Source of the DNA: a virus
Lineage: Duplodnaviria; Caudoviricetes
DNA: 64,000 bases
Reading direction: 5' to 3' (one strand)
Virus record (IMG/VR): IMGVR_UViG_2830022421_000002
Coordinates: 4,013-68,012 of that record
Positions 2,301 to 55,554 of this stretch are shown here, in pieces. The translations under genes and the position numbers were made by a program. Each line of letters opens with the position of its first letter. The first letter of the stretch is position 1. Below the pieces are notes generated by a model, which was given only the letters and a program-made list of their open reading frames with translations, searched no databases and was not told where the DNA came from.

Positions 2301-4481
2301 CTATATTATAAAATATCTAAGCAAATTATTCTCTACCTTGCCTATAGAGATCTTTCTCTCTCCAAAATTCAGAGGATTTTCTTTTATGGCTACATAGCTG
2401 TTCCTTGGTCTGGATGTTTCAAAATAAGCCTTAAATAGGCTGATAGAAGTTCTTGGTTTTATAGTCTTGTGGAAATGATATTTGACTATTGGTTCTATCT
2501 TCTCATGTATTTCTTCTGGTGTATATCCTTTTCCTGTTTCAAAGGCTTCTCTCATACTTATTCTTAGAGGGTGGTCTTCTGCCAGACACCAGAACATAAT
2601 AGCATTGATAAGCCCCTTGTAAGCTTTAATATTCATATGCCTTATTTCATAGAGGTAGTCTAATAGTTTATCAGATTCTACATATTCGTTCAAATCTATA
2701 AATCTTTCAAGGATAGGCTTCTCTTCTTTGGTGCAGGTTCTTAGTTTCTCTGCAACATACTTATTTAGAACACCTGTAGGCAGCTTTTCTACTTTCTCTT
2801 TCAAGTCTGCAACTAAAGCAGTCTGTAATGAATCTATTAATTCATTTCTGCTATCTGTGAAATGGTTCTCTATTCTCTGTTCTGCTGATTTTTCTTCATC
2901 AGTCCTATTGTTTTCATATTCTATCTGTGTTACCTGATGTCCTTCTGAAACTAAGGCTTTATATAGTTTCTCTTGATTAATATACAGTTCATTGAATAGT
3001 TGTTCTCTTTCTGTCAGAAAATCAATATTAAGGTAGGCTATATCATATTTTCCTTCATTTATAGTAGGTCTTATAAGTGGAATTGGCTGACCTCTGAATG
3101 GGGTTTCAAGGGCTTTGTCCAATATGGCAAGTTTCATTACATTGAATAAATCTATTAAATCCTTATCTTCTCCCTGTATAATATGGGCTGCATTTATCAA
3201 ATCTAAGACTTTATTAGCCTTTTTAATCAATGTATTTCTATATTTAGCTGTAGTCCTTTTAAACTTAGGCTCATAGTCTGTAGTGTTATAGATTATAGTA
3301 TCACTCAATATGCCATCTTTAATTCTGCATCTACCATAGATTTGAGTTATCTTCTTTGTAGTAAGCATTTGATGTGCATATTTTACATTAGAAACAGTGA
3401 TAAGGTGGTAAGTATCATTGATATCTATTCCAGAAAAATAGCTGCAAGTCATAAAATTGATTCTCTTAGGTAATGTAGAATCATCTTTCAATGGGTAATA
3501 ATAAGTTCCTGCATCTTTCCTGCTTGATTCACTGCACATGATAGCACATTCCTTCTGTGTAGATTCATCTATCATAGATATAATATTCTTTACCTGTGAG
3601 ACTGTATTATAGGCTATCAATATCTTATCTTCTGGATATTTTTTTATCAACTCTGTGACTGCATGATTGATGCTGTTAGACTGATTGATATGTATGAGCC
3701 TTATCTCTCTTTTCTTGTGGGATAATTCTTCTATTTCAAATCTGCATTCATTCTGGAATAGAGGATTGGAGAATTCCCCCATTGTAGCAGTTACAATACA
3801 CCTGTTCTTTACATCAAACTTAAAATAGTTATCTATTACTGTTTCTAAATTAGGTCTGTAGTTACTGTCTGCTTGGAGAAGATCTATTTCATCTACCATT
3901 AGGAAGCAATGTTTATAGGCTTCTTCCCCTAGTATATTCATCAAATAATCTAAGCTGTCTGCTACCACTAAAAACTTTAGAGGCTGAGTAGTATTTTGCT
4001 CCAAATAATTAATGATTTCATCTTTACTTACCCTGTCTGTAAATTCTCCTATGGAAGTGCCAACATATAGTACTTTTTTAGGGTTCAGATTATTTTCAGC
4101 CCATTTAAATTTGCTATAGGCTAGTTTCTTTGTAGGTACTACTATTATTGAATGTCTGGGTGATTTGAGTTCTAAGGTTGTTGCACCTACTCCTGTAGCT
4201 TTTTTGTCTACAATTCCATGAGGCAACTTTTGGATAAAATTAGATAGTCTGTATTCATCTGTGAAACCTTGAGATGAACCCCAAATCATAAAATAACCTT
4301 TGTGAATGGTAGTGATTGTTTCTTCTGGATTAGCTCCTGCCAGAGTATCTAAGACTGCTTCTGAAAATAAATCCTTGACTTGATTTTCTATTATCTCTTT
4401 AGGAATTATTTTTTCTTCTTCTTCTTCTTTTGCAGCCTCATATTTTTTGAGGCTGTCTAGTATGCTTATTGTTTTAGCCAT
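2301..4481 (-). CDS. Superfamily-2 helicase-like protein (origin-binding/replication type), 726 aa
   Basis: Motif I variant ATGVGATT, Ia VVPTKKL, II VDEID, III VTAT, V TCSYFSGIDI, VI QIYGRCR. Confidence 0.65.
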   Translation of the reverse strand: MAKTISILDSLKKYEAAKEEEEEKIIPKEIIENQVKDLFSEAVLDTLAGANPEETITTIHKGYFMIWGSSQGFTDEYRLSNFIQKLPHGIVDKKATGVGATTLELKSPRHSIIVVPTKKLAYSKFKWAENNLNPKKVLYVGTSIGEFTDRVSKDEIINYLEQNTTQPLKFLVVADSLDYLMNILGEEAYKHCFLMVDEIDLLQADSNYRPNLETVIDNYFKFDVKNRCIVTATMGEFSNPLFQNECRFEIEELSHKKREIRLIHINQSNSINHAVTELIKKYPEDKILIAYNTVSQVKNIISMIDESTQKECAIMCSESSRKDAGTYYYPLKDDSTLPKRINFMTCSYFSGIDINDTYHLITVSNVKYAHQMLTTKKITQIYGRCRIKDGILSDTIIYNTTDYEPKFKRTTAKYRNTLIKKANKVLDLINAAHIIQGEDKDLIDLFNVMKLAILDKALETPFRGQPIPLIRPTINEGKYDIAYLNIDFLTEREQLFNELYINQEKLYKALVSEGHQVTQIEYENNRTDEEKSAEQRIENHFTDSRNELIDSLQTALVADLKEKVEKLPTGVLNKYVAEKLRTCTKEEKPILERFIDLNEYVESDKLLDYLYEIRHMNIKAYKGLINAIMFWCLAEDHPLRISMREAFETGKGYTPEEIHEKIEPIVKYHFHKTIKPRTSISLFKAYFETSRPRNSYVAIKENPLNFGERKISIGKVENNLLRYFII

Positions 4482-42040: not shown

Positions 42041-42484
42041 TTATAAAGTCTTTATATCTATTGCTAATCCTTGTCCTATTAGTCCGTGAATGTCAAAATG
42101 CCATTCGTAGAGCTTTTGGAAGAGTTCTATTTGGTGTGATGTATGCCATGCATCCCATCCGTCACTTGATTCAAAAGAATCATCTTTGTAGCTAAAATAT
42201 GCCATCGATGGATGTGCAGTTATAGCTAAATTCCTACTTTCTTCTAATAACCAATCATAGTAAGGTAGTGCTATCTTTGCCAGTTCCACAATAGGTATCT
42301 TCCCATCTTCCAAGCATGGTTTGTATAGGGCGGACATCGGGCGGAGGATGGGCTTCCTTACTTCATTTTCTACTAATGTTGTATAATTTAATGTTGTCAA
42401 GCTAAGCGAGGTACAATTTTCTTTAAACATTAATAAATTATACGGCAAATAGCCAGCTATATCTTTTAATTCTAATTTCCTCAT
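42041..42484 (-). CDS. Hypothetical phage protein, 147 aa
   Basis: KPILRP...WHFDIHGLI; ATGA overlap. Confidence 0.55.
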   Translation of the reverse strand: MRKLELKDIAGYLPYNLLMFKENCTSLSLTTLNYTTLVENEVRKPILRPMSALYKPCLEDGKIPIVELAKIALPYYDWLLEESRNLAITAHPSMAYFSYKDDSFESSDGWDAWHTSHQIELFQKLYEWHFDIHGLIGQGLAIDIKTL

Positions 42485-43149
42485 TTCAGCAATCTATTAA
42501 GGTTTGATTTTTTATTTATCTTAGTGAACTTCTGTAGTTCTCCAATCAGATCTACCACCTCGGCAGCTGTAGGCTCAGGCAGATTATTATGTCCGCTATC
42601 AGCCCCTACATTCACCTGTTCGGGGTTGCACATCTTAATCAACCTCAGCATAGGGCTCATATCGAACTTCATAACCGGTTCGATGGTGACATAAGTCTTT
42701 GCATACTTACTCAGGTAAGCCATTGCTTCTACCCTGTAATATGGCAGAGGGCTATCCCGCATCACTGGATGAGGTCTGTTACTTTCTATCGTAGTACATA
42801 CGACCGATCTTTTGAATACCGGATGTTCGATATATTTTATTATTCGCCCCGGGTTTTTCGACTGGAAGAGATAGCGGTTATCCGGGAAACTATCGCAATA
42901 GTCCAACGTTCTGATTATCCACTCTTCTGGATGCTCATTCGCGAACAGATCATTACTGCTACCGACAAAAATAAAGTTGTCAGCGCCCAAGTCGGTTTTA
43001 AATTCCGACTCATCCAAACGGGGCGGGTTCAGTTTACCCCACCGCTTCATATAACAATACCCGCAGTTGTGCGGGCATTCTCCTTTTACTGTATTGAAAG
43101 TATGGGTAACAAAGTCGTACATGTTACCCTTCGATTCGTTTAGTGACAT
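42481..43149 (-). CDS. Radical-SAM-like phage protein (DUF5131/Gp37-Gp68 type), 222 aa
   Basis: CPHNCGYCY (CxxxCxxC), SSNDLF, QSKNP, TIEP, GADSG. Confidence 0.8.
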   Translation of the reverse strand: MSLNESKGNMYDFVTHTFNTVKGECPHNCGYCYMKRWGKLNPPRLDESEFKTDLGADNFIFVGSSNDLFANEHPEEWIIRTLDYCDSFPDNRYLFQSKNPGRIIKYIEHPVFKRSVVCTTIESNRPHPVMRDSPLPYYRVEAMAYLSKYAKTYVTIEPVMKFDMSPMLRLIKMCNPEQVNVGADSGHNNLPEPTAAEVVDLIGELQKFTKINKKSNLNRLLK

Positions 43150-43209: not shown

Positions 43210-43503
43210 TTATCCGTCCAGAACCCCCTCTCCAAAGATTGCAACAGGTAATTCCATATTCATAGTGAAAAAATCATGCTGTAAACCCATATATTCGGCT
43301 TCAGCCAGTTCCTCGGAATACATTTCCGTTACATCGGGATTCCACAACACACGCCCATCGGGTAACCGTTCCATCAATTCCATAAAAAACGCCAGCCTGT
43401 GACAATATTTGAACACATCCAGCGGCATGTCTTTAGTGGGAGTTATGACAACGGTTTCGATGGGTGTTGTCTTATCGAACAGATTAAGTTGAAAAGGATT
43501 CAT
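43210..43503 (-). CDS. Hypothetical protein, 97 aa
   Basis: Co-oriented ORF. Confidence 0.45.
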   Translation of the reverse strand: MNPFQLNLFDKTTPIETVVITPTKDMPLDVFKYCHRLAFFMELMERLPDGRVLWNPDVTEMYSEELAEAEYMGLQHDFFTMNMELPVAIFGEGVLDG

Positions 43504-44759: not shown

Positions 44760-45539
44760 TCAATTAAGCTGTTGTAACAATCCACGAAAATTTACCCTCT
44801 CATGTATCATTTTCATTCGTCCCTGGCTTAAATTTTCTTTGGAAGAATTTTTCAGGCATTCCTTTTCTGATTTCTTATGCAGTATAGTGTAAAGAGGAAG
44901 AGCTTTTATAAAATTATCCTTCCGAGTATACTTTATCAGGCAATCAGGACAAATGCAATCGAGTTTTACATCATCATAATCTATGCCGAGCATTTTCCCG
45001 ACTTTGGAAATATCCATACCAGATACTTTTTCCAAAGCATTATCGAAGAATGCATCAAAGCCGGTCACACAATCACCGTAATAAAAAGGATATTCGAGTA
45101 TTTTATATAATCCCGGCTCTTTGTGAACGATTTTTGATATTTCTTTTGTGATAAAGAAATGTTCTGTCATTTCATCATTATCATAAGAATCTTCACAGAT
45201 TGGGCACGATGTCCTAAATTTATCATCGTAACAATCATCACATAAGAGGTCTTGATATTCTTTGTGATAATTGGGATATCCACCCCATTCAAAAACGCCT
45301 TTCCCGCAGTTCTCGCATTCGAAATCCTTTTCCCGATCGGATCGGAACTGGTCCCACCCTTTCTGTGAATATGAATAAAAAGCAAAAGTGTTCTTTTTTA
45401 TATATACTCTCCATGAATAGTGTTTTTTGTAATAGCGGCGCCAATCTTCCTTACTCGTTCCACTTCTGAAATATTTAAGGGTTTTCTTTGTTTTCCGTGG
45501 TAATCTAAATTTCCTCATAACAGACCTCCTTTTCTTCAT
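44760..45539 (-). CDS. Cys-rich (Zn-ribbon) hypothetical protein, 259 aa
   Basis: Four CxxC pairs (CENC, CDDC, CPIC, CPDC). Confidence 0.5.
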   Translation of the reverse strand: MKKRRSVMRKFRLPRKTKKTLKYFRSGTSKEDWRRYYKKHYSWRVYIKKNTFAFYSYSQKGWDQFRSDREKDFECENCGKGVFEWGGYPNYHKEYQDLLCDDCYDDKFRTSCPICEDSYDNDEMTEHFFITKEISKIVHKEPGLYKILEYPFYYGDCVTGFDAFFDNALEKVSGMDISKVGKMLGIDYDDVKLDCICPDCLIKYTRKDNFIKALPLYTILHKKSEKECLKNSSKENLSQGRMKMIHERVNFRGLLQQLN

Positions 45540-45703: not shown

Positions 45704-46357
45704 TTACAAAATGTCTTTAAACCTTTTAATTCGTTGTTTCTTTTCATCTAATTCCTGAGCTGCTGCAACTTCGTTTTGTTGTCGTGTTTCCTCAAGCATT
45801 TTTTTGAGGTTCGGCATCTTATCAACATTCTGCATCAGGGCAACACCCAACGATTGTAGATTAGGAAACGGTTTTTGCATTTCTGCATTTGCTTTATACA
45901 TAGCAGATCTTCTCTCTTTTACATACTCCGAAAAACAGTTTAGTATAAATTCCCCAGACAGATTGTTATAGAGAGGACCATATCCACCCATCTTGATGCG
46001 GGAGATAACCAGCGTAAGCTCGGCTATATTCAGGTACGACCACCGTTTAACTATCCAAAAGGATATTTCTTTTATCTGTTCCTTTGTAAGATGTTGTGAT
46101 ACATTCACGAAAATATTCAGCGTGGCCAGATGAACAGATATAAAGTCTGAAGGGCAATCTTTGCTATACCAGCTCGCCAGTTCCGAAAAAGTGACAGCCT
46201 GGCTATTGATACAATGCTCAGCTAATTCGAAATCGCCATATTTATCCATACATACAGTCGGATTTACTTTTGTGATAAACTCGATAGCCTTGTTGTATTT
46301 CGCCAGTACCAGTTCCTTTCTCTTCTCGGGTATCATTAATTCATTTCTATTGTCCAT
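45704..46357 (-). CDS. Replication-associated helical protein (helicase-loader position), 217 aa
   Basis: Overlaps the initiator gene; LNIAELTLVISRIKMGGYG. Confidence 0.5.
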   Translation of the reverse strand: MDNRNELMIPEKRKELVLAKYNKAIEFITKVNPTVCMDKYGDFELAEHCINSQAVTFSELASWYSKDCPSDFISVHLATLNIFVNVSQHLTKEQIKEISFWIVKRWSYLNIAELTLVISRIKMGGYGPLYNNLSGEFILNCFSEYVKERRSAMYKANAEMQKPFPNLQSLGVALMQNVDKMPNLKKMLEETRQQNEVAAAQELDEKKQRIKRFKDIL

Positions 46358-47234
46358 ATTTCACACTTAGTTCTTCTGCTATAGCTACAGCTGTCCCCAT
46401 GGCAGTTTGTTTGTTTAATGATGTGGAATTATTATTCTTATATACTTTATTGAAGCTTTGGTCTAAAGCTTTCTTGAAAGTACTTACCCAGTCAATTTTG
46501 GCACTCTTGGAAGATTTTTTATTCTTCCATCCTGCTTCCGTACCCCAAAAGTCGCGATGGGCTTTTTCAAGGGAGAGAACAATATCCATGTTAGGATGAT
46601 AACGTTCCCTGTCTTTGATAAAGTCCTGATTTTGGATGAGATTATTATAGACAGCCGTTTCTTCCTCGAGGTAAATATCAAATGAGTCGCGCCACGTTTT
46701 TTCTGTTTTCTCTTTCTCTTTTTCCCCCATACCCCCTTTATTACTATCTCTTTCATTACCCATACTATTACTATTACCTATACTATAGCCCCTTTGAAGG
46801 GGCTTTGAAGGGGCTTTAAAAAAATCTTCAACAGTTTGAAAACCAAATAAATCTGATTTATCGTTTAGTCGTTTAATAATTCCCTTATGCGCCATATTAC
46901 TTTCGTTCAATGGCAGGTTGTTTTGGTTTTTGATAAAATTCCGGATGAATATGAACTTGCCATCATTAGAATACAGAATGCGGGGGGCAGGGGCTTCCTC
47001 TCTCGATGCTTTCTTTATCTCCTGTTTATCGTCCGGACATAACTCTACAAATGCTTTCTCTATGGACTTCCTATCAGTGCCAAGCTCAAAGGCTATAGTC
47101 TTGATGTTAACTTCCAAAAAGCCGGCTATGTCGCATTGATCGCACAGGTACATAAATAGGAGCTTCGATAAAGGACTCAACTCACTGAACCAATTATCTA
47201 CCCACTTATCTGTATTAGTATATCTGTTAGCCAT
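46347..47234 (-). CDS. Phage replication initiator / replisome organiser, 295 aa
   Basis: N-terminal RYTNTDKWVDNWFSELSPLSKLLFMYLCDQCDIAG; internal low-complexity repeat region typical of an intragenic origin. Confidence 0.7.
   Translation of the reverse strand: MANRYTNTDKWVDNWFSELSPLSKLLFMYLCDQCDIAGFLEVNIKTIAFELGTDRKSIEKAFVELCPDDKQEIKKASREEAPAPRILYSNDGKFIFIRNFIKNQNNLPLNESNMAHKGIIKRLNDKSDLFGFQTVEDFFKAPSKPLQRGYSIGNSNSMGNERDSNKGGMGEKEKEKTEKTWRDSFDIYLEEETAVYNNLIQNQDFIKDRERYHPNMDIVLSLEKAHRDFWGTEAGWKNKKSSKSAKIDWVSTFKKALDQSFNKVYKNNNSTSLNKQTAMGTAVAIAEELSVKYGQ
46787..46820. repeat. Iteron-like repeats inside the initiator gene (candidate phage ori)
   Basis: AGCCCCT-TTGA-AGGGGCT palindrome plus TTTGAAGGGGC x2, flanked by TACTAT repeats and an AT-rich tract. 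Confidence 0.5.
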
Positions 47235-47252
47235 ATTTTTTATTAATTATTA

Positions 47253-48038
47253 TCATACAGGAATGGGGTTTACATTCATTGTCTGTAAATTGAGGTATAG
47301 GCCCGAATAATCGACCATACCCTCACGGAATAATTTCCAAAGAAGGTTACATCCGAGCTGTGCAAGCGTCGAATTGATAAACATATCTTGTTTGCTTATC
47401 GCTTCGGCCAGGGAACACGACGGTCCCGAATCTTCCTCTTTTACTTTCTGCAGGGAAAACCGCTTTGTAACAAGGGGAAGGCTTGCCACAGTTTCTGTTT
47501 GTTCAGATGTTGGTTGTTTTATATCCGTAACTGTACCTAAGATAACCTGACCGGAGTTTACTGTATTACCAAAGTCCAGCCAGTAATAAGGCTGTATAAA
47601 AGGCGGATAGAAATGAGATCTCAATGTTGTTAAATACTTCGATATCTCAAGGCGGGATTTTACATTATCCACACAGGTTATAATGATATTGCTATGATTT
47701 TTACTGTCATACTTCTTATCTATAGCTTTCCATGCTGTTCCATAGAACCTGTTAATGCGTGTCACCAGTGCGATCGCTTTATTTAGTCCTATTTCTGTTT
47801 CACTGAAAAGCTGGCGCCCAATATTGGCATGAGTAACAATATCATCATCATAGGCAATAACATGTAAGCCAGGATGTCCTAAACTCATCAGACCCTGATT
47901 CATTCTAGCTAGACAGCTGAGAACCTGCGAACCAGTACCCCCGCATCCGACAACTGCAACAGTGACCTGATGGGTAGGATTGATAATATAATTCTCTGCA
48001 AAATGTCGTCTTTGTTTATTTGTCAGATTCTTTTTCAT
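47253..48038 (-). CDS. PRTRC-system ThiF/E1-like protein, 261 aa
   Basis: VVGCGGTGS, DDDIVTHANIGRQ, TCVDN, YWLDFGN, CSLAEAISKQDMFIN. Confidence 0.9.
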   Translation of the reverse strand: MKKNLTNKQRRHFAENYIINPTHQVTVAVVGCGGTGSQVLSCLARMNQGLMSLGHPGLHVIAYDDDIVTHANIGRQLFSETEIGLNKAIALVTRINRFYGTAWKAIDKKYDSKNHSNIIITCVDNVKSRLEISKYLTTLRSHFYPPFIQPYYWLDFGNTVNSGQVILGTVTDIKQPTSEQTETVASLPLVTKRFSLQKVKEEDSGPSCSLAEAISKQDMFINSTLAQLGCNLLWKLFREGMVDYSGLYLNLQTMNVNPIPV

Positions 48039-48711
48039 TTAATAAATCTTTTAGGGTTATATCACTCAATAGCAATACTTCTTCGTCAAATTTCTCTTTC
48101 GATTTCTTAGTAACCAGTACAAGGTTTCCCTTTATAGGATTTCTCCCCAGATGTGAGAACTCGGTAAGCCAGAACTTATCTTCCCAATATTTAAAGAAAT
48201 CATTGAAAGATGGATTACTTGGATATGTTACCTCAGCTCTACCAATGCAAACTGCAGCATCTGTTACATTGAAATAAGGCGCTTTGAATAATTGGTTTTT
48301 AGGTTTCTTTCCCTTAAAAGCATACACATTCAGCTTTTCCCCATTGACAACATAGATGATCCCCGGAACACAATACTCTCCATCTTCAATATTCAGGCTC
48401 TGGGTAAAATACATCATCCGTTTTCGTGGCGGGTTATACCAGATGTATTTTTGATGTCCTACCCGATTATCGAAGTATAAAAGATTGGAAGGTGTGCAAC
48501 CGTGTGGCTCCATACTGAATTCCACACTGAAACTACTTGCGATCTCTGATATACATTCGACAGTAAGCGGAGAACCTACCCCCATAACATAACCCTCATC
48601 TCTTTTATTAATGGAATGTGATTCGAAATAGTAATCTTCCTGATTCTTATAGCCTACGATCGACACAAAGGGCTTTAACTCCCTGTAAATCTTATCGTCA
48701 ATTCTTCTCAT
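48016..48711 (-). CDS. PRTRC-system protein B (prokaryotic E2-like), 231 aa
   Basis: PSNLLY, WYNPP, PGIIY, APYFNV...VCIG (putative catalytic Cys), FWLTEFSH. Confidence 0.85.
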   Translation of the reverse strand: MRRIDDKIYRELKPFVSIVGYKNQEDYYFESHSINKRDEGYVMGVGSPLTVECISEIASSFSVEFSMEPHGCTPSNLLYFDNRVGHQKYIWYNPPRKRMMYFTQSLNIEDGEYCVPGIIYVVNGEKLNVYAFKGKKPKNQLFKAPYFNVTDAAVCIGRAEVTYPSNPSFNDFFKYWEDKFWLTEFSHLGRNPIKGNLVLVTKKSKEKFDEEVLLLSDITLKDLLNEKESDK

Positions 48712-49864
48712 GGATGTCTAATACTGATATTAATAAATCTTTTTTCTCGTAGTCCTCAAAAGCTGATATCAAATCTTCTAGCCACCAAAAGAACAATTCA
48801 GGTGAACGGGGAAGAAGTGGTTTATCCTGGTCTGGCGTTACAATTATTTCTGTTGAAGGTATGTGATCCATATAAATCTCAAATGCAGATGAATATAAAG
48901 CCTGTTCAATATTTTGTTCCAGAAATTCAGTGAGCTTGTCCTGAGTGTCATATACAAAGCGGAATAACTGATTCATTTCAAAAATCTCGTAGCCGTCATG
49001 ATCATACTCTCCGTCCTCATTCATTTCCTGATCTTCATACATTTGGTCATAAGCATGGAGCATGTGCTTCTGTACATAAGTGTTTTCAAGAAGTGGAATA
49101 CCTCTTTCGATCAGGATTAGTATTTTCTTTTCGGCTTCGTTTTTTGGCTTGAAGTTTTTGAGAGATTTTTTAAGCTTTTCGGTGTCACTTTTTTCTTTAT
49201 CCAGATATTTGAAAAGCATATCAATCTTTCCACCCTCTTTGCATCCTTCATACAATTGCATAAGCTCTTTATCATCCTCAGAAATATCTTTTAAATTAAT
49301 CCCATTTTTACAATGCCATTCGCACTCTTCAACAAATCTGAGATAGTCCCACTCTTCAGATAGAACTGCAGCACCGTAAGATTTTAAACAGAGGAGTAAA
49401 TGGGTGATAATCTTTTTGAATTTTCCTTTTGCCTTATGTAAGATATTACACGGTATATAATACCTCTTATCCATGAAGAAATTAGTATCAAAATAGATAT
49501 AGAATGACGGTAAGCCTTCATGATCAACGATTGTCATGTCCTGCCGATCTTCCAATATCCCTTTCATGTAACTTAGCAGATTCCTAATATCATGATCTTT
49601 CGGTGGTGGGTTAGAACTGCCTACAAGCTTAGAATAATTCTCTGCCGACTGATACAGATATTCGTAACTATCGAAAGTAAATACCGGTAGAACTGCCCCC
49701 GCAGTTTTAGTAGTAAAAACGGTCTTTAGAAAACAATATCCTGTTTCAATCCTTTTGGAAGAACCCGCTTGTAGTTCTTCACCCCTTGGGAGATATCCCC
49801 CCTCTCGATTTCCCGAGAGAGGATATTTCCCAATGCTTTGTATGTTATGGTTAGTCGCTGACAT
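48698..49864 (-). CDS. PRTRC-cassette accessory protein (protein F position), 388 aa
   Basis: Synteny between proteins C and B; acidic C-terminus. Confidence 0.5.
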   Translation of the reverse strand: MSATNHNIQSIGKYPLSGNREGGYLPRGEELQAGSSKRIETGYCFLKTVFTTKTAGAVLPVFTFDSYEYLYQSAENYSKLVGSSNPPPKDHDIRNLLSYMKGILEDRQDMTIVDHEGLPSFYIYFDTNFFMDKRYYIPCNILHKAKGKFKKIITHLLLCLKSYGAAVLSEEWDYLRFVEECEWHCKNGINLKDISEDDKELMQLYEGCKEGGKIDMLFKYLDKEKSDTEKLKKSLKNFKPKNEAEKKILILIERGIPLLENTYVQKHMLHAYDQMYEDQEMNEDGEYDHDGYEIFEMNQLFRFVYDTQDKLTEFLEQNIEQALYSSAFEIYMDHIPSTEIIVTPDQDKPLLPRSPELFFWWLEDLISAFEDYEKKDLLISVLDIHEKN

Positions 49865-49868
49865 TTTT

Positions 49869-50084
49869 TCATCCTTTCGTTCCTACAGTCGTTTTGAACT
49901 TGTAAATCATCTTATCATTTTCGACAGTGGGCCCGTGTACCGTGGCTGTTGTCAGTTCGGAGTGCTGCGATGAATAATGGTTCATCACTTGATCGGGTGT
50001 CATGGCAGGGTTAGGATCCTGCAATACTGTTCTTGATTTCTCAATGATGAACTCACGTATGAGTTCTTTTGTATTTAGTGCCAT
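49869..50084 (-). CDS. PRTRC-system protein C (ubiquitin-like), 71 aa
   Basis: LQDPNPAMTPDQVMNHYS, YKFKTTVGTKG with a C-terminal Gly. Confidence 0.88.
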   Translation of the reverse strand: MALNTKELIREFIIEKSRTVLQDPNPAMTPDQVMNHYSSQHSELTTATVHGPTVENDKMIYKFKTTVGTKG

Positions 50085-50089
50085 AATTA

Positions 50090-50560
50090 TTAAAATAAGC
50101 TGGTTTGACTTAATGAGTTGGTTAGTTCATCCACCTTGCGGGATGCTTTAGAGTGTTTCGGTTCTTTTTCCAGAACCTTTTTATACTCGGCCAATGCTTC
50201 TGATAGCTTGCCGTCTGTTTCGTACTTCTCAGCGTCTTTAATCATTTTTCCAATGATATCGCTAACCTCTTTAGCTGCTTTTGTGCTGCCAGCTGCCGCT
50301 TCGACTCCTTTCTCATATTCAGCGATATTGGATATGATTCCGCCCGATAATTGAAGTGGTCTGGTTATCTCACTGACGAATCCCTCGTCAAGTTCCTCAG
50401 CTGTACCGGTAAGGGTTAGTGGTTTGATTTTCTTTACAGCATCGTCTTTGACGCCATTATCGAGGTGCAATACTGTGACAGTCATATTGACGCCTGTCTT
50501 GTGGATGGTGATTGATACCGATTGTCCGGCAGCAATCATTTCGTTTATCTCTTTAAACAT
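50090..50560 (-). CDS. PRTRC-system protein E with a C-terminal TPR-like hairpin, 156 aa
   Basis: MFKEI, PLTLTGTAEELDEGF, EALAEYKKVLEKEPKH. Confidence 0.85.
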   Translation of the reverse strand: MFKEINEMIAAGQSVSITIHKTGVNMTVTVLHLDNGVKDDAVKKIKPLTLTGTAEELDEGFVSEITRPLQLSGGIISNIAEYEKGVEAAAGSTKAAKEVSDIIGKMIKDAEKYETDGKLSEALAEYKKVLEKEPKHSKASRKVDELTNSLSQTSLF

Positions 50561-50571
50561 GATTATGAAAT

Positions 50572-51699
50572 TTAGTCAATTAATAATAGTGGCATTAATA
50601 AAAGAGTGAGTTCTGTGTCCTCATCGTCCTCTACAGGCTTGACAAGCATTGCCCGGCTCGGTTCTGAGAATGACATTACAACATCATCCGGAGCTCCAGC
50701 TAACAGGTCTTTCATAAATGTACCTTTGAATCCTATCTTTATGGCATCTGTAGCACCTTCTTTCAGTTCTTCTTTTGCCGATTTATTGAAATCAACATCA
50801 GCAGAAGAAAAAACACAACTTTCAGTACTTGCTTCCAGCTTTATCATATTGGTTGCCATATTGGAAGTGATAAGCAGACGATCGATGATGCTTACAAGGT
50901 CTTTTTTTGCGACCTGAACAGTTATATTATTATTCTGTGGAATAACTGAATTGTAGTTCGGGTAACGCCCCTCGATAAGCCTTGCGGTTAATGTTGTAGG
51001 ACCTACTGTTATCCACACCCTGTTTTCTGTTGCTTTCAGATAAGCATTCCTGTCCTCATCGCTCACATCATCAATATATTTCATAAGTAGGATAACTGCC
51101 ATTTTGGGAAGATTGACAGGTTTCAGGTCGATTCCTTTCATGGTGAAATCTGTGTACTTCGATAAGCGGTGCCCATCGGAAGCAACAAAGGTCACACAAT
51201 CCTTTTGGATATCCATAAACACACCATTCATCACCGGGCGAAGCTCATCATTGGCCGACTGCTTAATGTTCTTCCCGAGTGCAACCTTCAGACGATCGGC
51301 AGGGATAAGATAGGCCACTTCTTCGGTATCTTCCATCTTTGAATAATCTCCCTTGTCGAGTATTGCAATCTTGAATTCTCCCGAACCGTGTAATACAGTT
51401 GCCTGATAGGCTTTAGGATTTATCTCGATTGAGATAGGCTGAACGGGAAGAGTTTTCATTGTGTCCAGTATTGTTGTGTCTAGGCAGAAGATAGAATCAC
51501 CCTCTGGCTGACTTACCTTGAGGAAAGTTTCAATCTGGATATTCGTGTCGCTTCCTGTCAGGGTCAATACATCGCCTTTTAGTTCACACAGTATATTGTC
51601 ATATACCGGCAGTGTGTTTTTGCCGTTGATAGCCCCGCAAACCTTTTGCAGGTGCTTTTGTAGTAGAGATTTGTCTACTATGAACTTAGTTTCTTTCAT
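50572..51699 (-). CDS. dnaN: Phage-encoded DNA polymerase III beta sliding clamp, 375 aa
   Basis: LTLTGSD, ELRPVMNGV, VASDGHRL, RLIEGRYPNYNSVIP, IGFKGTFMKDLL, LLLMP. Confidence 0.92.
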   Translation of the reverse strand: MKETKFIVDKSLLQKHLQKVCGAINGKNTLPVYDNILCELKGDVLTLTGSDTNIQIETFLKVSQPEGDSIFCLDTTILDTMKTLPVQPISIEINPKAYQATVLHGSGEFKIAILDKGDYSKMEDTEEVAYLIPADRLKVALGKNIKQSANDELRPVMNGVFMDIQKDCVTFVASDGHRLSKYTDFTMKGIDLKPVNLPKMAVILLMKYIDDVSDEDRNAYLKATENRVWITVGPTTLTARLIEGRYPNYNSVIPQNNNITVQVAKKDLVSIIDRLLITSNMATNMIKLEASTESCVFSSADVDFNKSAKEELKEGATDAIKIGFKGTFMKDLLAGAPDDVVMSFSEPSRAMLVKPVEDDEDTELTLLLMPLLLID

Positions 51700-51715
51700 A
51701 AAAATTAATATTGCG

Positions 51716-52327
51716 TTATAAAAAACAGTTGTTTATTTTCTTTTTTCTTTTTTCTTTTTTACTCTTTTTCCCACCTTTTTTATTCAAGGCGCCCATATAG
51801 AAAGGCTGATTATTTTCGGTTAGGTCTGGAGTATAAAGAGCATCTTTAGGAGAGAGTGCCAGTTCATCCCTAATCTTCATTGGTGGCATTGATTCAATAA
51901 ACTTTTCAGAAAAGACATCTGATCCGGAAGCGATATCAACACCAACTATCATTGCATTCTTGCCTATTTGTTCAGCAGCATCCAGAGCAGCTTTAAAAAT
52001 GGAATTATCCATACCCGGGCCAACAATAGCAATCCGTTTATTTTTTTCTAACAGAGTAGCAATATCTCCGATTGGGTAAGAATTTTCAGTGATACTGTCA
52101 ATAGCCGTTGAATATCTTTCGATTGAAGGATTGAAGCCGTTATACACAAAACCATCATCGAAATGCAGAATTTCAAAGAATGGATCAATAGAATCGACAA
52201 GAACCCATTCACCGCCATATTTATCATTTAGCTTCTGTTGAATTTCCCGGCATTGTTCCTGACTACAGGATAGCAATACTTTTTCTGATGTTCTGTGCTT
52301 GGCAAATATTTTAAAATTGAATATCAT
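51716..52327 (-). CDS. Hypothetical protein with a basic C-terminus, 203 aa
   Basis: ORF in the replication cluster. Confidence 0.5.
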   Translation of the reverse strand: MIFNFKIFAKHRTSEKVLLSCSQEQCREIQQKLNDKYGGEWVLVDSIDPFFEILHFDDGFVYNGFNPSIERYSTAIDSITENSYPIGDIATLLEKNKRIAIVGPGMDNSIFKAALDAAEQIGKNAMIVGVDIASGSDVFSEKFIESMPPMKIRDELALSPKDALYTPDLTENNQPFYMGALNKKGGKKSKKEKRKKKINNCFL

Positions 52328-52329
52328 GA

Positions 52330-52725
52330 TTATGTTTCTTTTATTTTTATTCCATATATCTGGAACATTAGTTTCTTCTTGATCCTGTATGCTTCGGTCT
52401 TTACGCCTTTCGCGTCCTCAACCACAAGCTCTTTGTTATTACAGTTATCGTTGTAGGTAAAGTCAGCATAATAGGAGCAGCTTTTTTCGATACATACCTT
52501 TTTCAACTTTAATTTCGTTTTTAGCTGGACAGGTATTTCATCGTATTGAGCCGGAATAAGAAGAAAAGGAACTTGTTCTTTCAGATTGGAAATAAGCCCC
52601 TGTTGTTCCATCAGCTTCAACTGTCCGGCACGCTCACTCTCTTTCTTGGAATCGTATTTCCCTGTTTTCTTGTTCCGGTACTTGGAACTCCGTTTTCCCA
52701 ATTTTCGATAGTCCTTTACATTCAT
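52330..52725 (-). CDS. DUF1064-type PD-(D/E)xK endonuclease-like protein, 131 aa
   Basis: KYRNKK, YDSKKE, YYADFTY, VEDAKG, YRIKKKL. Confidence 0.8.
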   Translation of the reverse strand: MNVKDYRKLGKRSSKYRNKKTGKYDSKKESERAGQLKLMEQQGLISNLKEQVPFLLIPAQYDEIPVQLKTKLKLKKVCIEKSCSYYADFTYNDNCNNKELVVEDAKGVKTEAYRIKKKLMFQIYGIKIKET

Positions 52726-52814
52726 ATCTTACAACTATTTTAGTTTGACCTTTACGGTTAATTCTTCCGATCATTTGTTTTTGGATATCGGTTAATTTAT
52801 TTTCCATATTTCTT

Positions 52815-54485
52815 TTATACGTTAAAGATGTTAGCGACCATATCTATCATGTTCGTTTCGACAGTATCGACCGAACCGGTGACGGCATTGGCAATGTTTT
52901 TCTTTTCCTGAATGATTTTATAAACCTTTTCATCGATCGTGTTCTGACCGAGAAAGTAATAGACCATAACAGACCCCTTTTGTCCGATCCTGTGTAATCT
53001 GTCCTCACATTGTATACAATCCGCATACGTCCATGGGAACTCTACAAAGGCAACGTTCTGGCAGACCTTTTGCAATCCATCCACACCAACACCAGCCGCT
53101 TTAATAGAGCAGATAATGATAGGTATATCGGGGTTACTCTGGAAACTGTCAATCGATCTCTGTTTGTCCTCTGCAGTATCACCCCCGCGGATGGTTACCG
53201 CTTCGGGAAAGTATTTCATAAGCGCCTCGGCTACTTCCCTGAGGTGGATAAACAGTACCATCTTTTGTCCGCTCTGGATAAAGTCCTCAACGAACTCGAT
53301 AACATCCTTTATCTTTCCCCTGGCTGATACGTTGCGCAAAATCTGTATACGAACCATCACTTCCCCACGCATCGACTTGGCAATCTTTGCATCATCAGCA
53401 TCTTTATATTTACGCAGGTACTCAATGAGGTTTTTCTCTGCGTCCATATATTCCCTTCGGTTTGTAATCTCACAAGTAAGAACCTGACGTACTTTATCGG
53501 GTAGATCCTTTAGTACTTCTTTCTTTTCTCTGCGGAAGAAACAATTTTGCCTGAGTATCTGATTTAACTCTCTGAGGTTGCTTGCTTTATTGGGGCCGGA
53601 GCAATAACGCTTAATAAAGTTCTGATATCCGCCGAAGTTTTGAAGTTGTCCCATAATACCCAGCTGTGGTGCTAAGTCTTTGGGCTTATTTACGACCGGA
53701 GTACCCGACAGGCAGATAACCATTTCCTTGCCGTTGGCTATACCCATTGTCAGCTTACTTTGCTGTGCGGAGAAATCTTTGCACTTATGAGATTCATCGA
53801 CAATAACCGATTTGAACAGCTTGATTATATCTCGGAATACAACATCGGCAAGCATCCACCCTTTGGGTTTCAATAGCTTCTGTACGAAAAACTTTTTCAG
53901 TGATTCATAATTAACGATAAATACCTGATTCATGCCAGCTTCCCAAAAGAAAGGCCATGTGTCGACTACTTTATCATCAAGTATCATGGCTTTTTTATCG
54001 GTGAACTTATGCCATTCCCGCTGCCAGTTTATTTTTATGGCGCTAGGGCAAATAACAAGACAAGGAAAAGCATCGGCCAGATTTACCGTACCGATGCTTT
54101 GAAGTGTCTTTCCCAGTCCGGGATCGTCCCCGTTGAGGAAGCGTTTGAACTTTAGCCCTGTTGCGATACCATCGCCCTGATAGGGGTAAGGGTTTACTTT
54201 CAGTTGATGGGGTATAATAAGTTTCTCCAGCTCGACAGGGGTATAGTCAACATAGACGTTTTTGGGCGGTTCTCCCATAATTACATCAGTGATGAATTTA
54301 GCGTACCGTGCGAACTTTTCTATTTCCAACTGGTATGCTGCTGAGATAGTCCAATACTTTCCAAGGTATCTCGCATCCGTCCTTGTCTTGATATCCTGTA
54401 GCTTACGTACCAATTTCGGATGATAGTCGAAGTATATTTCATAATAGCTTCCAAGATTACCCGTTTTCAGTACAATATTTACCAT
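52815..54485 (-). CDS. SNF2-family helicase, 556 aa
   Basis: PYPYQ, DDPGLGKT, IVDESH, LSGTP, AAGVGVDGL, QCEDRLHRIGQ. Confidence 0.9.
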   Translation of the reverse strand: MVNIVLKTGNLGSYYEIYFDYHPKLVRKLQDIKTRTDARYLGKYWTISAAYQLEIEKFARYAKFITDVIMGEPPKNVYVDYTPVELEKLIIPHQLKVNPYPYQGDGIATGLKFKRFLNGDDPGLGKTLQSIGTVNLADAFPCLVICPSAIKINWQREWHKFTDKKAMILDDKVVDTWPFFWEAGMNQVFIVNYESLKKFFVQKLLKPKGWMLADVVFRDIIKLFKSVIVDESHKCKDFSAQQSKLTMGIANGKEMVICLSGTPVVNKPKDLAPQLGIMGQLQNFGGYQNFIKRYCSGPNKASNLRELNQILRQNCFFRREKKEVLKDLPDKVRQVLTCEITNRREYMDAEKNLIEYLRKYKDADDAKIAKSMRGEVMVRIQILRNVSARGKIKDVIEFVEDFIQSGQKMVLFIHLREVAEALMKYFPEAVTIRGGDTAEDKQRSIDSFQSNPDIPIIICSIKAAGVGVDGLQKVCQNVAFVEFPWTYADCIQCEDRLHRIGQKGSVMVYYFLGQNTIDEKVYKIIQEKKNIANAVTGSVDTVETNMIDMVANIFNV

Positions 54486-55106: not shown

Positions 55107-55146
55107 ATTTTTCTCTGTTTTATTAAATAAAAAAAGAGGAGAATGT

Positions 55147-55554
55147 TTAAAATCCCCCTCTCGATGTATATTGCATTTCTGTTTTTGCCTTACTTATGAT
55201 CGTCCGGCACCAGTCTATCTGATGCGTACAGGCAGCATTTAGCCGTTCAATAAGATCTACCAAATACTGTTCTTCTTTCGATGCCGATTTTACAAGTTTA
55301 TTAATAGCGGAAGGTGTAGCTCCGGCATGTTTAGCTGCATCTTTTAGGATTTCAAACACATCTGTCTTGGTTGTAGTGTTCAAATGATATTTAGCATCGG
55401 CCAGCATCTTTGTGGTTCGTGCGAGATAAGCAGATAAATCGTTACCACGCTGTACCGCCTCTTCGGGGTTCTCACTCATTACCATATCGAGGTAGTCCTG
55501 TATTTTGTAGGCCTCTTTCAGTAAATCCTCTTTCGATGTTATATGTAATTCCAT
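55147..55554 (-). CDS. Hypothetical coiled-coil phage protein, 135 aa
   Basis: ORF flanked by hairpins. Confidence 0.55.
   Translation of the reverse strand: MELHITSKEDLLKEAYKIQDYLDMVMSENPEEAVQRGNDLSAYLARTTKMLADAKYHLNTTTKTDVFEILKDAAKHAGATPSAINKLVKSASKEEQYLVDLIERLNAACTHQIDWCRTIISKAKTEMQYTSRGGF

Follow-up and report, generated by a model that had tools for sequence, protein, structure and literature searches.

Introduction

Why would a tailed phage carry the gene of a DNA sliding clamp directly in front of a cassette for ubiquitin-like protein conjugation? This question is raised by a stretch of 64,000 nucleotides (nt; hereafter the window), positions 4,013 to 68,012 of the IMG/VR virus record IMGVR_UViG_2830022421_000002. 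There dnaN, which encodes a beta sliding clamp, is followed by genes for protein E, the ubiquitin-like (Ubl) protein C, a helical protein of 388 amino acids (aa), the E2-like protein B and an E1-like enzyme of the ThiF family. The cassette is a phage-borne, DnaN-led variant of PRTRC (operon type 6d) that has neither JAB nor ParB. PRTRC we take to be the ParB-Related, ThiF-Related Cassette covered by the NCBIfam models TIGR03734-03742. The answer developed below, which we regard as modestly probable, is that E would dock the E1/E2/Ubl machinery onto DNA-loaded clamps, the phage variant of PRTRC being co-transcribed with a clamp of its own. Judged from sequence, the cassette probably acts at replicating DNA.

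PRTRC corresponds to the operon that Iyer, Burroughs and Aravind (2006; PMC1779556) classed as type 6d. The E2-like protein of type 6d was described as having a conserved Cys and a downstream His, and the 2006 description mentions neither protein E nor a sliding clamp (PMC1779556). In a 2026 paper the function of PRTRC was stated as not studied (PMC13366799). Protein B has been reported as a recurrent mutation hotspot in a prophage of Phocaeicola vulgatus during host-range expansion in mice (2026 preprint, 10.64898/2026.10.01.756045). In the literature no paper was found that ties PRTRC to a sliding clamp, and the papers that mention PRTRC give no mechanism.

A conserved peptide at the end of protein E

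The translation of the window's protein E ends in SQTSLF, directly before the stop codon. Its six closest relatives end in QTSFF-N, QTNLF-V, QTSLF-S, QPSLF, QLSMF-NEEEEL and QGSLF. When the divergent E proteins are aligned, nearly every one has [S/D]-L-F in the shared block of columns, within a tail that is otherwise unconserved. Among 1.84 billion representatives searched with a profile, 1,870 members of the E family were found, and the block was conserved again in the best 150 of these 1,870 cluster representatives, among which canonical forms such as QLSLL (GQLSLL), TLSLF, TLDLF and QNSLF are found.

Across 232 distinct E proteins the aligned consensus reads Q-[G/P]-[S/D]-L-F. The first position is most often Q (75 proteins), then E and T; the second is G in 88, P in 58 and L in 14; the third is S in 106 and D in 36. 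At the last two positions, L (160), M (24) or I (10) account for 194 of the 198 filled columns at position 4, and F for 186 of 192 at position 5. A strict form of the motif is present in 137 of the 232 proteins, compared with 16 expected from shuffled tails, and 44 of the 232 carry the pattern Q.[SD][LM]F, compared with 1 of 422 other cassette proteins. What comes after the motif is usually an acidic tail or the end of the protein, and the motif is found with or without a clamp gene nearby.

The consensus for clients of the beta clamp is QL(S/D)LF, or more generally Q-phi-x-[L/M]-[F/L]; negatively charged flanks or a free C-terminal carboxylate favour binding, and the Gln is important for affinity without being essential (PMC11139829). 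The window's QTSLF agrees with the general form at Q, L and F and has T instead of an aliphatic residue at position 2. With established clients (Pol II, Pol IV, Pol III alpha, Hda, MutS/MutL and transposases) E appears to share a Q-x-[S/D]-L-F peptide at or near a disordered C-terminus, an acidic flank or free carboxylate, and a cognate clamp whose pocket is intact. Unlike them, the window's E has no DNA-processing domain and belongs to a protein-tagging cassette. By its sequence E is a candidate clamp client.

In an AlphaFold2 model (mean pLDDT, the predicted local distance difference test, 86), E starts with a small beta domain, which is followed by a long helix and then by a unit of three helices, and the motif lies at the low-confidence end. 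Residues 95-156 of the model resemble TPR/MIT units in structure comparison (Z 8-9). The earlier note had described E as a TPR-bearing adaptor. The TPR label was not confirmed: the model shows a single TPR/MIT-like unit, and Pfam gave no TPR match. The suggestion that E may act as an adaptor is strengthened by the family-wide, clamp-binding-like C-terminal motif.

Several other tails and fusions were observed. Pol IV of the host (G000 contig C2, 107145-108050) ends in IQLRINFEENEPEARE, a hexameric clamp-binding motif (IQLRINF) followed by an acidic tail, which is the layout of the protein E tail. In three IMG/VR loci (L104:4226-6355, L081:4319-5827 and L072:5153-6610) the E module forms the rear part of a fusion with an N6-DNA-methyltransferase-like domain, the methyltransferase-family matches being weak and near threshold; these fusions lie directly downstream of dnaN, and their tails still read PGLF or PDLF. 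A DksA/TraR zinc finger takes the place of the methyltransferase-like domain in L067. A tblastn search with E of phage Dina against plasmids gave one record, a low count that probably results from low-complexity filtering.

The same early operon of the prophage contains a 97-aa open reading frame (ORF; 43210-43503, minus strand) that starts MNPFQLNLFD and thus carries a textbook clamp-binding pentapeptide, QLNLF. This pentapeptide occurs in Pol V, and an N-terminal motif position is used by Hda. The product might serve as another clamp client or inhibit the clamp; chance alone is expected to give about one match of this kind in the prophage, and no homologue was found in the fetched loci.

Linkage of dnaN to the cassette

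How widely is dnaN linked to PRTRC? Loci were retrieved with the ThiF profile as the anchor, since a DNA-pattern scan does not work on an alignment as divergent as that of E. The best 80 of 166 IMG/VR loci were taken. In a phylum sample of 401 genomes the cassette was present in 10, including the window's own, and 11 sites outside the window were fetched. The resulting 91 loci, with 89 non-identical ThiF rows, were scored with iterated hidden Markov models built from the window's proteins.

In 23 of the 89 non-identical loci dnaN lies immediately upstream of E, mostly with a gap of 0-32 nt, and in 4 further loci it is embedded or nearby: L064 has it between C and the gene of the 388-aa helical protein, L085 and L093 have it some 3.5 kb downstream of ThiF, and in L103 it is close by. 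The adjacency is therefore not peculiar to this genome, as it would have to be for the refutation set out in the earlier note. No dnaN was found in 56 rows, and 6 rows were truncated.

The junction is also deeply conserved. In a quick maximum-likelihood tree of ThiF (IQ-TREE), dnaN-positive loci are scattered across the viral clade, including many deep, long branches, and well-supported branches force at least four changes of dnaN state. Pairwise identities, which are not independent data points, correlate between dnaN and ThiF with a Spearman coefficient of 0.50-0.52, not far from the 0.64-0.65 between ThiF and B. The median identity of the clamps among loci is only about 26%. The dnaN-ThiF correlation across clamps this divergent is a pattern of long-term co-inheritance and not of repeated chance juxtaposition.

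The gene upstream of E differs in other elements. Cassettes of the type found in integrative and conjugative elements (ICEs) make up the majority in genomes, and among 80 species-representative genome loci dnaN is adjacent in 2, embedded in 1 and absent in 51. In ICE-type loci the slot upstream of E can hold a DUF932 protein of clamp-like length (347-382 aa; L020:5184-6332, L026:5723-6796, L023:5677-6762 and L019:13348-14391); a type IA topoisomerase is encoded about 1 kb upstream of E in L043 (L043:2841-4937), and helicases or small ORFs are found in other such loci. From the DUF932 and topoisomerase context, several IMG/VR contigs classed as viral that carry the long form of E may be conjugative elements.

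In the proteobacterial plasmids L112, L113 and L114 a PRTRC ParB gene is directly upstream of E. On plasmid pBC201 an SNF2-related gene is found upstream of ParB, and in phage Dina (L001) small hypothetical ORFs occupy the slot. ParB-family proteins are CTP-gated DNA clamps. The parallel between ParB on these plasmids and DnaN in the window, both encoded in the slot upstream of E, is treated here as a lead and not as evidence.

The clamp and the conjugation proteins

The phage DnaN matches clamps of known structure in the PDB (best E 2e-41). The host has a separate dnaN on contig C1, and the two proteins are 37.6% identical. Read from an alignment to E. coli DnaN, and in E. coli numbering, the client pocket (subsites I and II) of the phage protein retains R152, D173, G174, H175, R176, L177, P242, V247, M362 and P363, with the substitutions T172 to S and V360 to L. 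Most clamps of mobile genetic elements have kept the MP signature and the DGHRL segment. As far as the alignment tells, the client-binding pocket of the phage clamp is intact.

The catalytic residues of the cassette are also in place. Invariant features of ThiF include the GxGGxG nucleotide-binding motif, R75, D124 and C208, the cysteine of a PSCSL motif. Among 89 sequences of protein B, C155 is conserved in 100% and H187 in 97%. In protein C, G68, K70 and G71 are conserved in 99-100% of 79 sequences. C is made in mature form, ending in GTKG, and the same ending is found in all Bacteroidota-type copies. Judged by these residues, the cassette looks functional.

The absence of a processing enzyme is consistent with a ready-made C. 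The B gene overlaps ThiF, which leaves no room for a JAB gene between them. JAB (protein A, TIGR03735) gave no match in the whole genome, and control genomes gave none either. For the PRTRC ParB (TIGR03734) nothing exceeded the cut-off in the whole genome, and the window's contig gave no match. Among the elements examined, the presence of JAB coincides exactly with a C that continues beyond the glycine (phages Dina and BgVeeders33 and plasmid pBC201); wherever C ends in Gly, as in the window, in all Bacteroidota loci and in a Pseudomonas plasmid, JAB is missing. This distribution fits a processing role for JAB and a reactive end formed by the glycine.

The 388-aa protein is a core member of the cassette, fast-evolving, with homologues in the same position between C and B in 89 of the 91 loci. 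Its model (pLDDT 76.7) gave no Foldseek match in the PDB at E <= 0.001, and the best hit of the VIA wide fold search (Z 5.0) was uninformative. The Atlas feature search gave no usable match, and the Atlas structure search led, at TM <= 0.50, to unnamed Bacteroidota clusters automatically labelled 'Peptidase'. No NCBIfam match and no conserved catalytic residues were visible, and no similarity to the proteobacterial protein F of plasmid pBC201 was detected (hhalign probability 0.2).

The window agrees with type 6d in its families and their order, E and Ubl C being followed by a helical, fast-evolving protein in the F position and then by E2-like B and ThiF; the Cys and downstream His of B and carriage on a mobile element are shared as well. 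The differences are the lack of a detected JAB or PRTRC ParB, a C that is already Gly-terminated when made, a beta clamp instead of ParB upstream of E, and a helical protein not detectably related to the proteobacterial F.

Prophage setting and neighbouring genes

The minus strand of the window carries a tailed prophage, recognised by its terminase (small and large), portal, major head and tape-measure proteins. The same prophage has a replication and recombination module that includes a Sak4-like annealing protein. The genes around the cassette are listed in Table 1 in their minus-strand order.

Table 1. Genes and the candidate motif of the dnaN-PRTRC run and its downstream neighbours in the window; bit scores are followed by model cut-offs where available.
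Feature	Position	Strand	Basis or remark
SNF2-family helicase, 556 aa	52815-54485	-	PF00176 82.1 bits and Helicase_C; heads the run
DUF1064 protein, 131 aa	52330-52725	-	PF06356 37.1 bits; phage replication/recombination module
203-aa ORF between DUF1064 and dnaN	51716-52327	-	No family match
DnaN beta sliding clamp, 375 aa	50572-51699	-	TIGR00663 (full-length equivalog model) 182.7 bits (cut-off 137.65); three Pfam clamp domains, PF00712, PF02767 and PF02768, all above their cut-offs
PRTRC protein E, 156 aa	50090-50560	-	PF19556 106.9 bits (26); TIGR03741 68.9 bits (37.95)
QTSLF, E residues 152-156, then stop codon	50093-50107	-	Candidate beta-clamp-binding motif
PRTRC protein C, ubiquitin-like beta-grasp, 71 aa	49869-50084	-	Prok_Ub 83.7 bits (25); TIGR03738 64.3 bits (45.95)
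388-aa mostly helical protein, 'protein F' position	48698-49864	-	Positional homologues in 89/91 loci
PRTRC protein B, E2-like (UBC fold), 231 aa	48016-48711	-	Prok-E2_D 110.6 bits (25); TIGR03737 87 bits, under its cut-off of 131.45
PRTRC ThiF-family E1-like adenylating enzyme, 261 aa	47253-48038	-	TIGR03736 254.9 bits (144.75)
295-aa ORF	46347-47234	-	No family match; weak Atlas leads
217-aa ORF	45704-46357	-	Weak DUF6633 match (PF20338 E 1.8e-4, below cut-off)

The spacings reported in the earlier note were reproduced: 11 nt separate the TAA stop of dnaN from the ATG of E, 18 nt separate the end of ThiF from the 295-aa ORF, and the SNF2 gene, placed about 1.1 kb upstream, ends 1115 nt before the start of dnaN. 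Between 44000 and 58000 the sole terminator-like site on the minus strand is at 55134-55162, and the run is uninterrupted. A single transcription unit is plausible because this site is upstream of the SNF2 gene.

The SNF2 gene had suggested an analogy to the SNF2-type Rad5 of eukaryotic damage tolerance. The Pfam domains of the protein are SNF2-related, Helicase_C, ResIII and DEAD only, and the analogy was rejected because no RING or HIRAN domain was found by Pfam. Homologues upstream of the cassette recur in a handful of loci only (L030, L032, L068 and L104). The protein resembles an ordinary helicase of a phage recombination module, beside Sak4 and DUF1064, and looks loosely linked to the cassette.

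The 295-aa ORF had been labelled a replication initiator. That label is not supported: the ORF has no Pfam, NCBIfam or PHROG family match, and the weak leads from Atlas (0.93-0.94; TM 0.41) are to DnaB_2-, DnaT- and Phg_2220_C-type proteins. It is possibly a DnaD/DnaB_2-like replisome organiser. As a core partner of the cassette it was rejected, homologues being present in just 6 of the 91 loci.

The remaining neighbours vary in their linkage. The 203-aa ORF, which has no match in Pfam, NCBIfam or PHROG, has a homologue in 1 of the 91 loci and is not conserved with the cassette. The 217-aa ORF is a loosely linked, recurrent accessory gene, with homologues in 23 of the 91 loci, in some of them roughly 1 kb upstream of E and in others a short way downstream of ThiF. 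A Cys-rich 259-aa ORF (44760-45539, minus strand), 1.7 kb downstream of ThiF, has a sub-threshold match to Prok-RING_4 (E 0.0013; 19 bits, cut-off 27); from this match it could be an E3-like partner, and no homologue was found in the 91 related loci. A 222-aa ORF in the early region (42481-43149, minus strand) matches DUF5131 with 29.5 bits and has a weak radical-SAM match.

A possible mechanism and its alternatives

How might the clamp and the cassette work together? In the proposed mechanism, ThiF would act as the E1 and adenylate the terminal glycine of the ready-made C, which would then be transferred to the conserved cysteine of the E2-like B. E would be the docking adaptor, and its C-terminal Q-x-[S/D]-L-F peptide would insert into the client pocket of a beta clamp that is loaded on DNA. 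The clamp could be the phage's own or, in elements that have none, that of the host. The tagging machinery would thereby be brought to replicating DNA, and C would be attached to a clamp-proximal target, be it the clamp, E itself or another clamp client. Docking of E on the clamp is the most economical account, and three observations fit it: dnaN is specifically beside E, the motif is universal regardless of a nearby clamp gene, and in three dnaN-adjacent loci E follows an N6-DNA-methyltransferase-like domain, itself recognised by weak matches.

Several findings weigh against docking, in addition to the non-independence of the identity correlations. A fully canonical, Gln-containing motif is present in only about 19% of E proteins. 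Position 2 is mostly G, P or T and rarely the aliphatic residue of high-affinity motifs, which sets E apart from known clients. Gln is often replaced, although it is rated important for affinity (PMC11139829). The tails of proteobacterial E proteins (3 plasmids and 2 phages), such as NLDLAASF, DLLSLLS and FDFF.., fit the consensus poorly. An adjacent dnaN is missing from two thirds of the viral loci and from nearly all ICE-type genome cassettes. The conserved [S/D]-L-F peptide could instead bind B, ThiF or the 388-aa protein.

These findings leave room for an account in which dnaN and PRTRC are merely replication-module cargo of one phage lineage, located together for modular reasons, and the tail of E binds B, ThiF, the 388-aa protein or a protease adaptor. 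The DUF932 proteins, topoisomerase, helicases or small ORFs found where dnaN is missing suit this account, as do the many motifs without Gln or with G or P at position 2, and a partner inside the cassette would likewise predict a motif that is independent of a nearby clamp gene. It explains less well why the motif agrees with the clamp consensus at 4 of 5 positions, S/D included, with the acidic or C-terminal flank typical of clients, or why dnaN stands so closely and specifically beside E across lineages whose clamps are so divergent. Every bacterial host supplies a clamp, so the elements without dnaN do not contradict docking. Simple co-location is a possible explanation that we hold to be unlikely.

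Docking of E on the clamp leaves a choice of targets. In the earlier note the clamp or the initiator was proposed, speculatively, as the conjugation substrate, and in one account the clamp itself is the covalent substrate. Attachment of C to a lysine of the phage or host clamp would then alter the choice of clients, a true analogue of PCNA modification. This proposal draws on the deep conservation of the dnaN-E junction, on the lineage with dnaN inside the cassette, on the clamp-binding-like peptide of E and on the co-divergence of the clamp with ThiF. Against it, nothing in the data points to an acceptor, and a clamp gene of their own is missing from most cassettes. Among the genes conserved with the cassette none encodes a RING-type E3, the Cys-rich 259-aa ORF being sub-threshold and without homologues in related loci, and the SNF2 protein lacks RING and HIRAN. 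The clamp as substrate seems rather improbable, more so than co-location.

Other bacterial systems combine similar enzymes. Bil, Bub and CBASS Cap2/Cap3 share with the window a Ubl that has Gly at its C-terminus, an adenylating enzyme like E1 and a cysteine carrier like E2; the protein families differ, in the window E1 and E2 are separate, and the genes are phage-encoded inside a replication module. The PADLOC models do not list the cassette, and ThiF matches their E1-E2 models with 16-32 bits over residues 20-110 (the Rossmann part) only. A defence or counter-defence device that tags proteins of competitor phages or of host immunity, and does not act at replication, is very improbable: other bacterial E1/E2/Ubl operons do work in phage defence, the weak ThiF match is to CBASS-type models and protein B is a reported mutation hotspot in a Phocaeicola prophage (10.64898/2026.10.01.756045), but E, C, B and the 388-aa protein gave 0 matches to PADLOC models, the cassette is found in phage replication modules or beside plasmid ParB and not in defence islands, and the clamp-like motif and the dnaN junction would be left unexplained.

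A wider view of clamp docking by E concerns PRTRC as a whole. In eukaryotes PCNA is ubiquitylated or SUMOylated by Rad6-Rad18, Ubc13-Mms2-Rad5 and Ubc9-Siz1. The window resembles these systems in that a sliding clamp is genetically tied to E1, E2 and Ubl proteins and to a putative adaptor with a clamp-docking peptide. The likeness is in a possible mode of working and not in homology, and the window differs in having no conserved RING E3, an SNF2 protein without RING or HIRAN, and a clamp of the bacterial beta type. By analogy, PRTRC in general might be a clamp-directed tagging system and a counterpart of PCNA modification, in which E would ride on clamps and C would be put on the clamp or on a clamp-bound client, and in plasmid versions the ParB DNA clamp would serve in place of the beta clamp. 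This extension is tentative, and we rate it about as unlikely as simple co-location.

Implications

PRTRC was predicted in 2006 and has since been annotated in hundreds of plasmids, ICEs and phages. The clamp-docking-like peptide of E, together with an operonic, co-diverging clamp, provides the first specific, testable hypothesis of where PRTRC acts. If the wider view of PRTRC given above is true, mobile elements could use the cassette to reprogram the replisome, for example by polymerase switching, by eviction of host clients or by marking their own forks. If the hypothesis is confirmed, covalent Ubl modification at the sliding clamp would no longer seem a eukaryotic and archaeal speciality. 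A new means of interfering with replication, used by phages and conjugative elements in gut Bacteroidota, would also have come to light.

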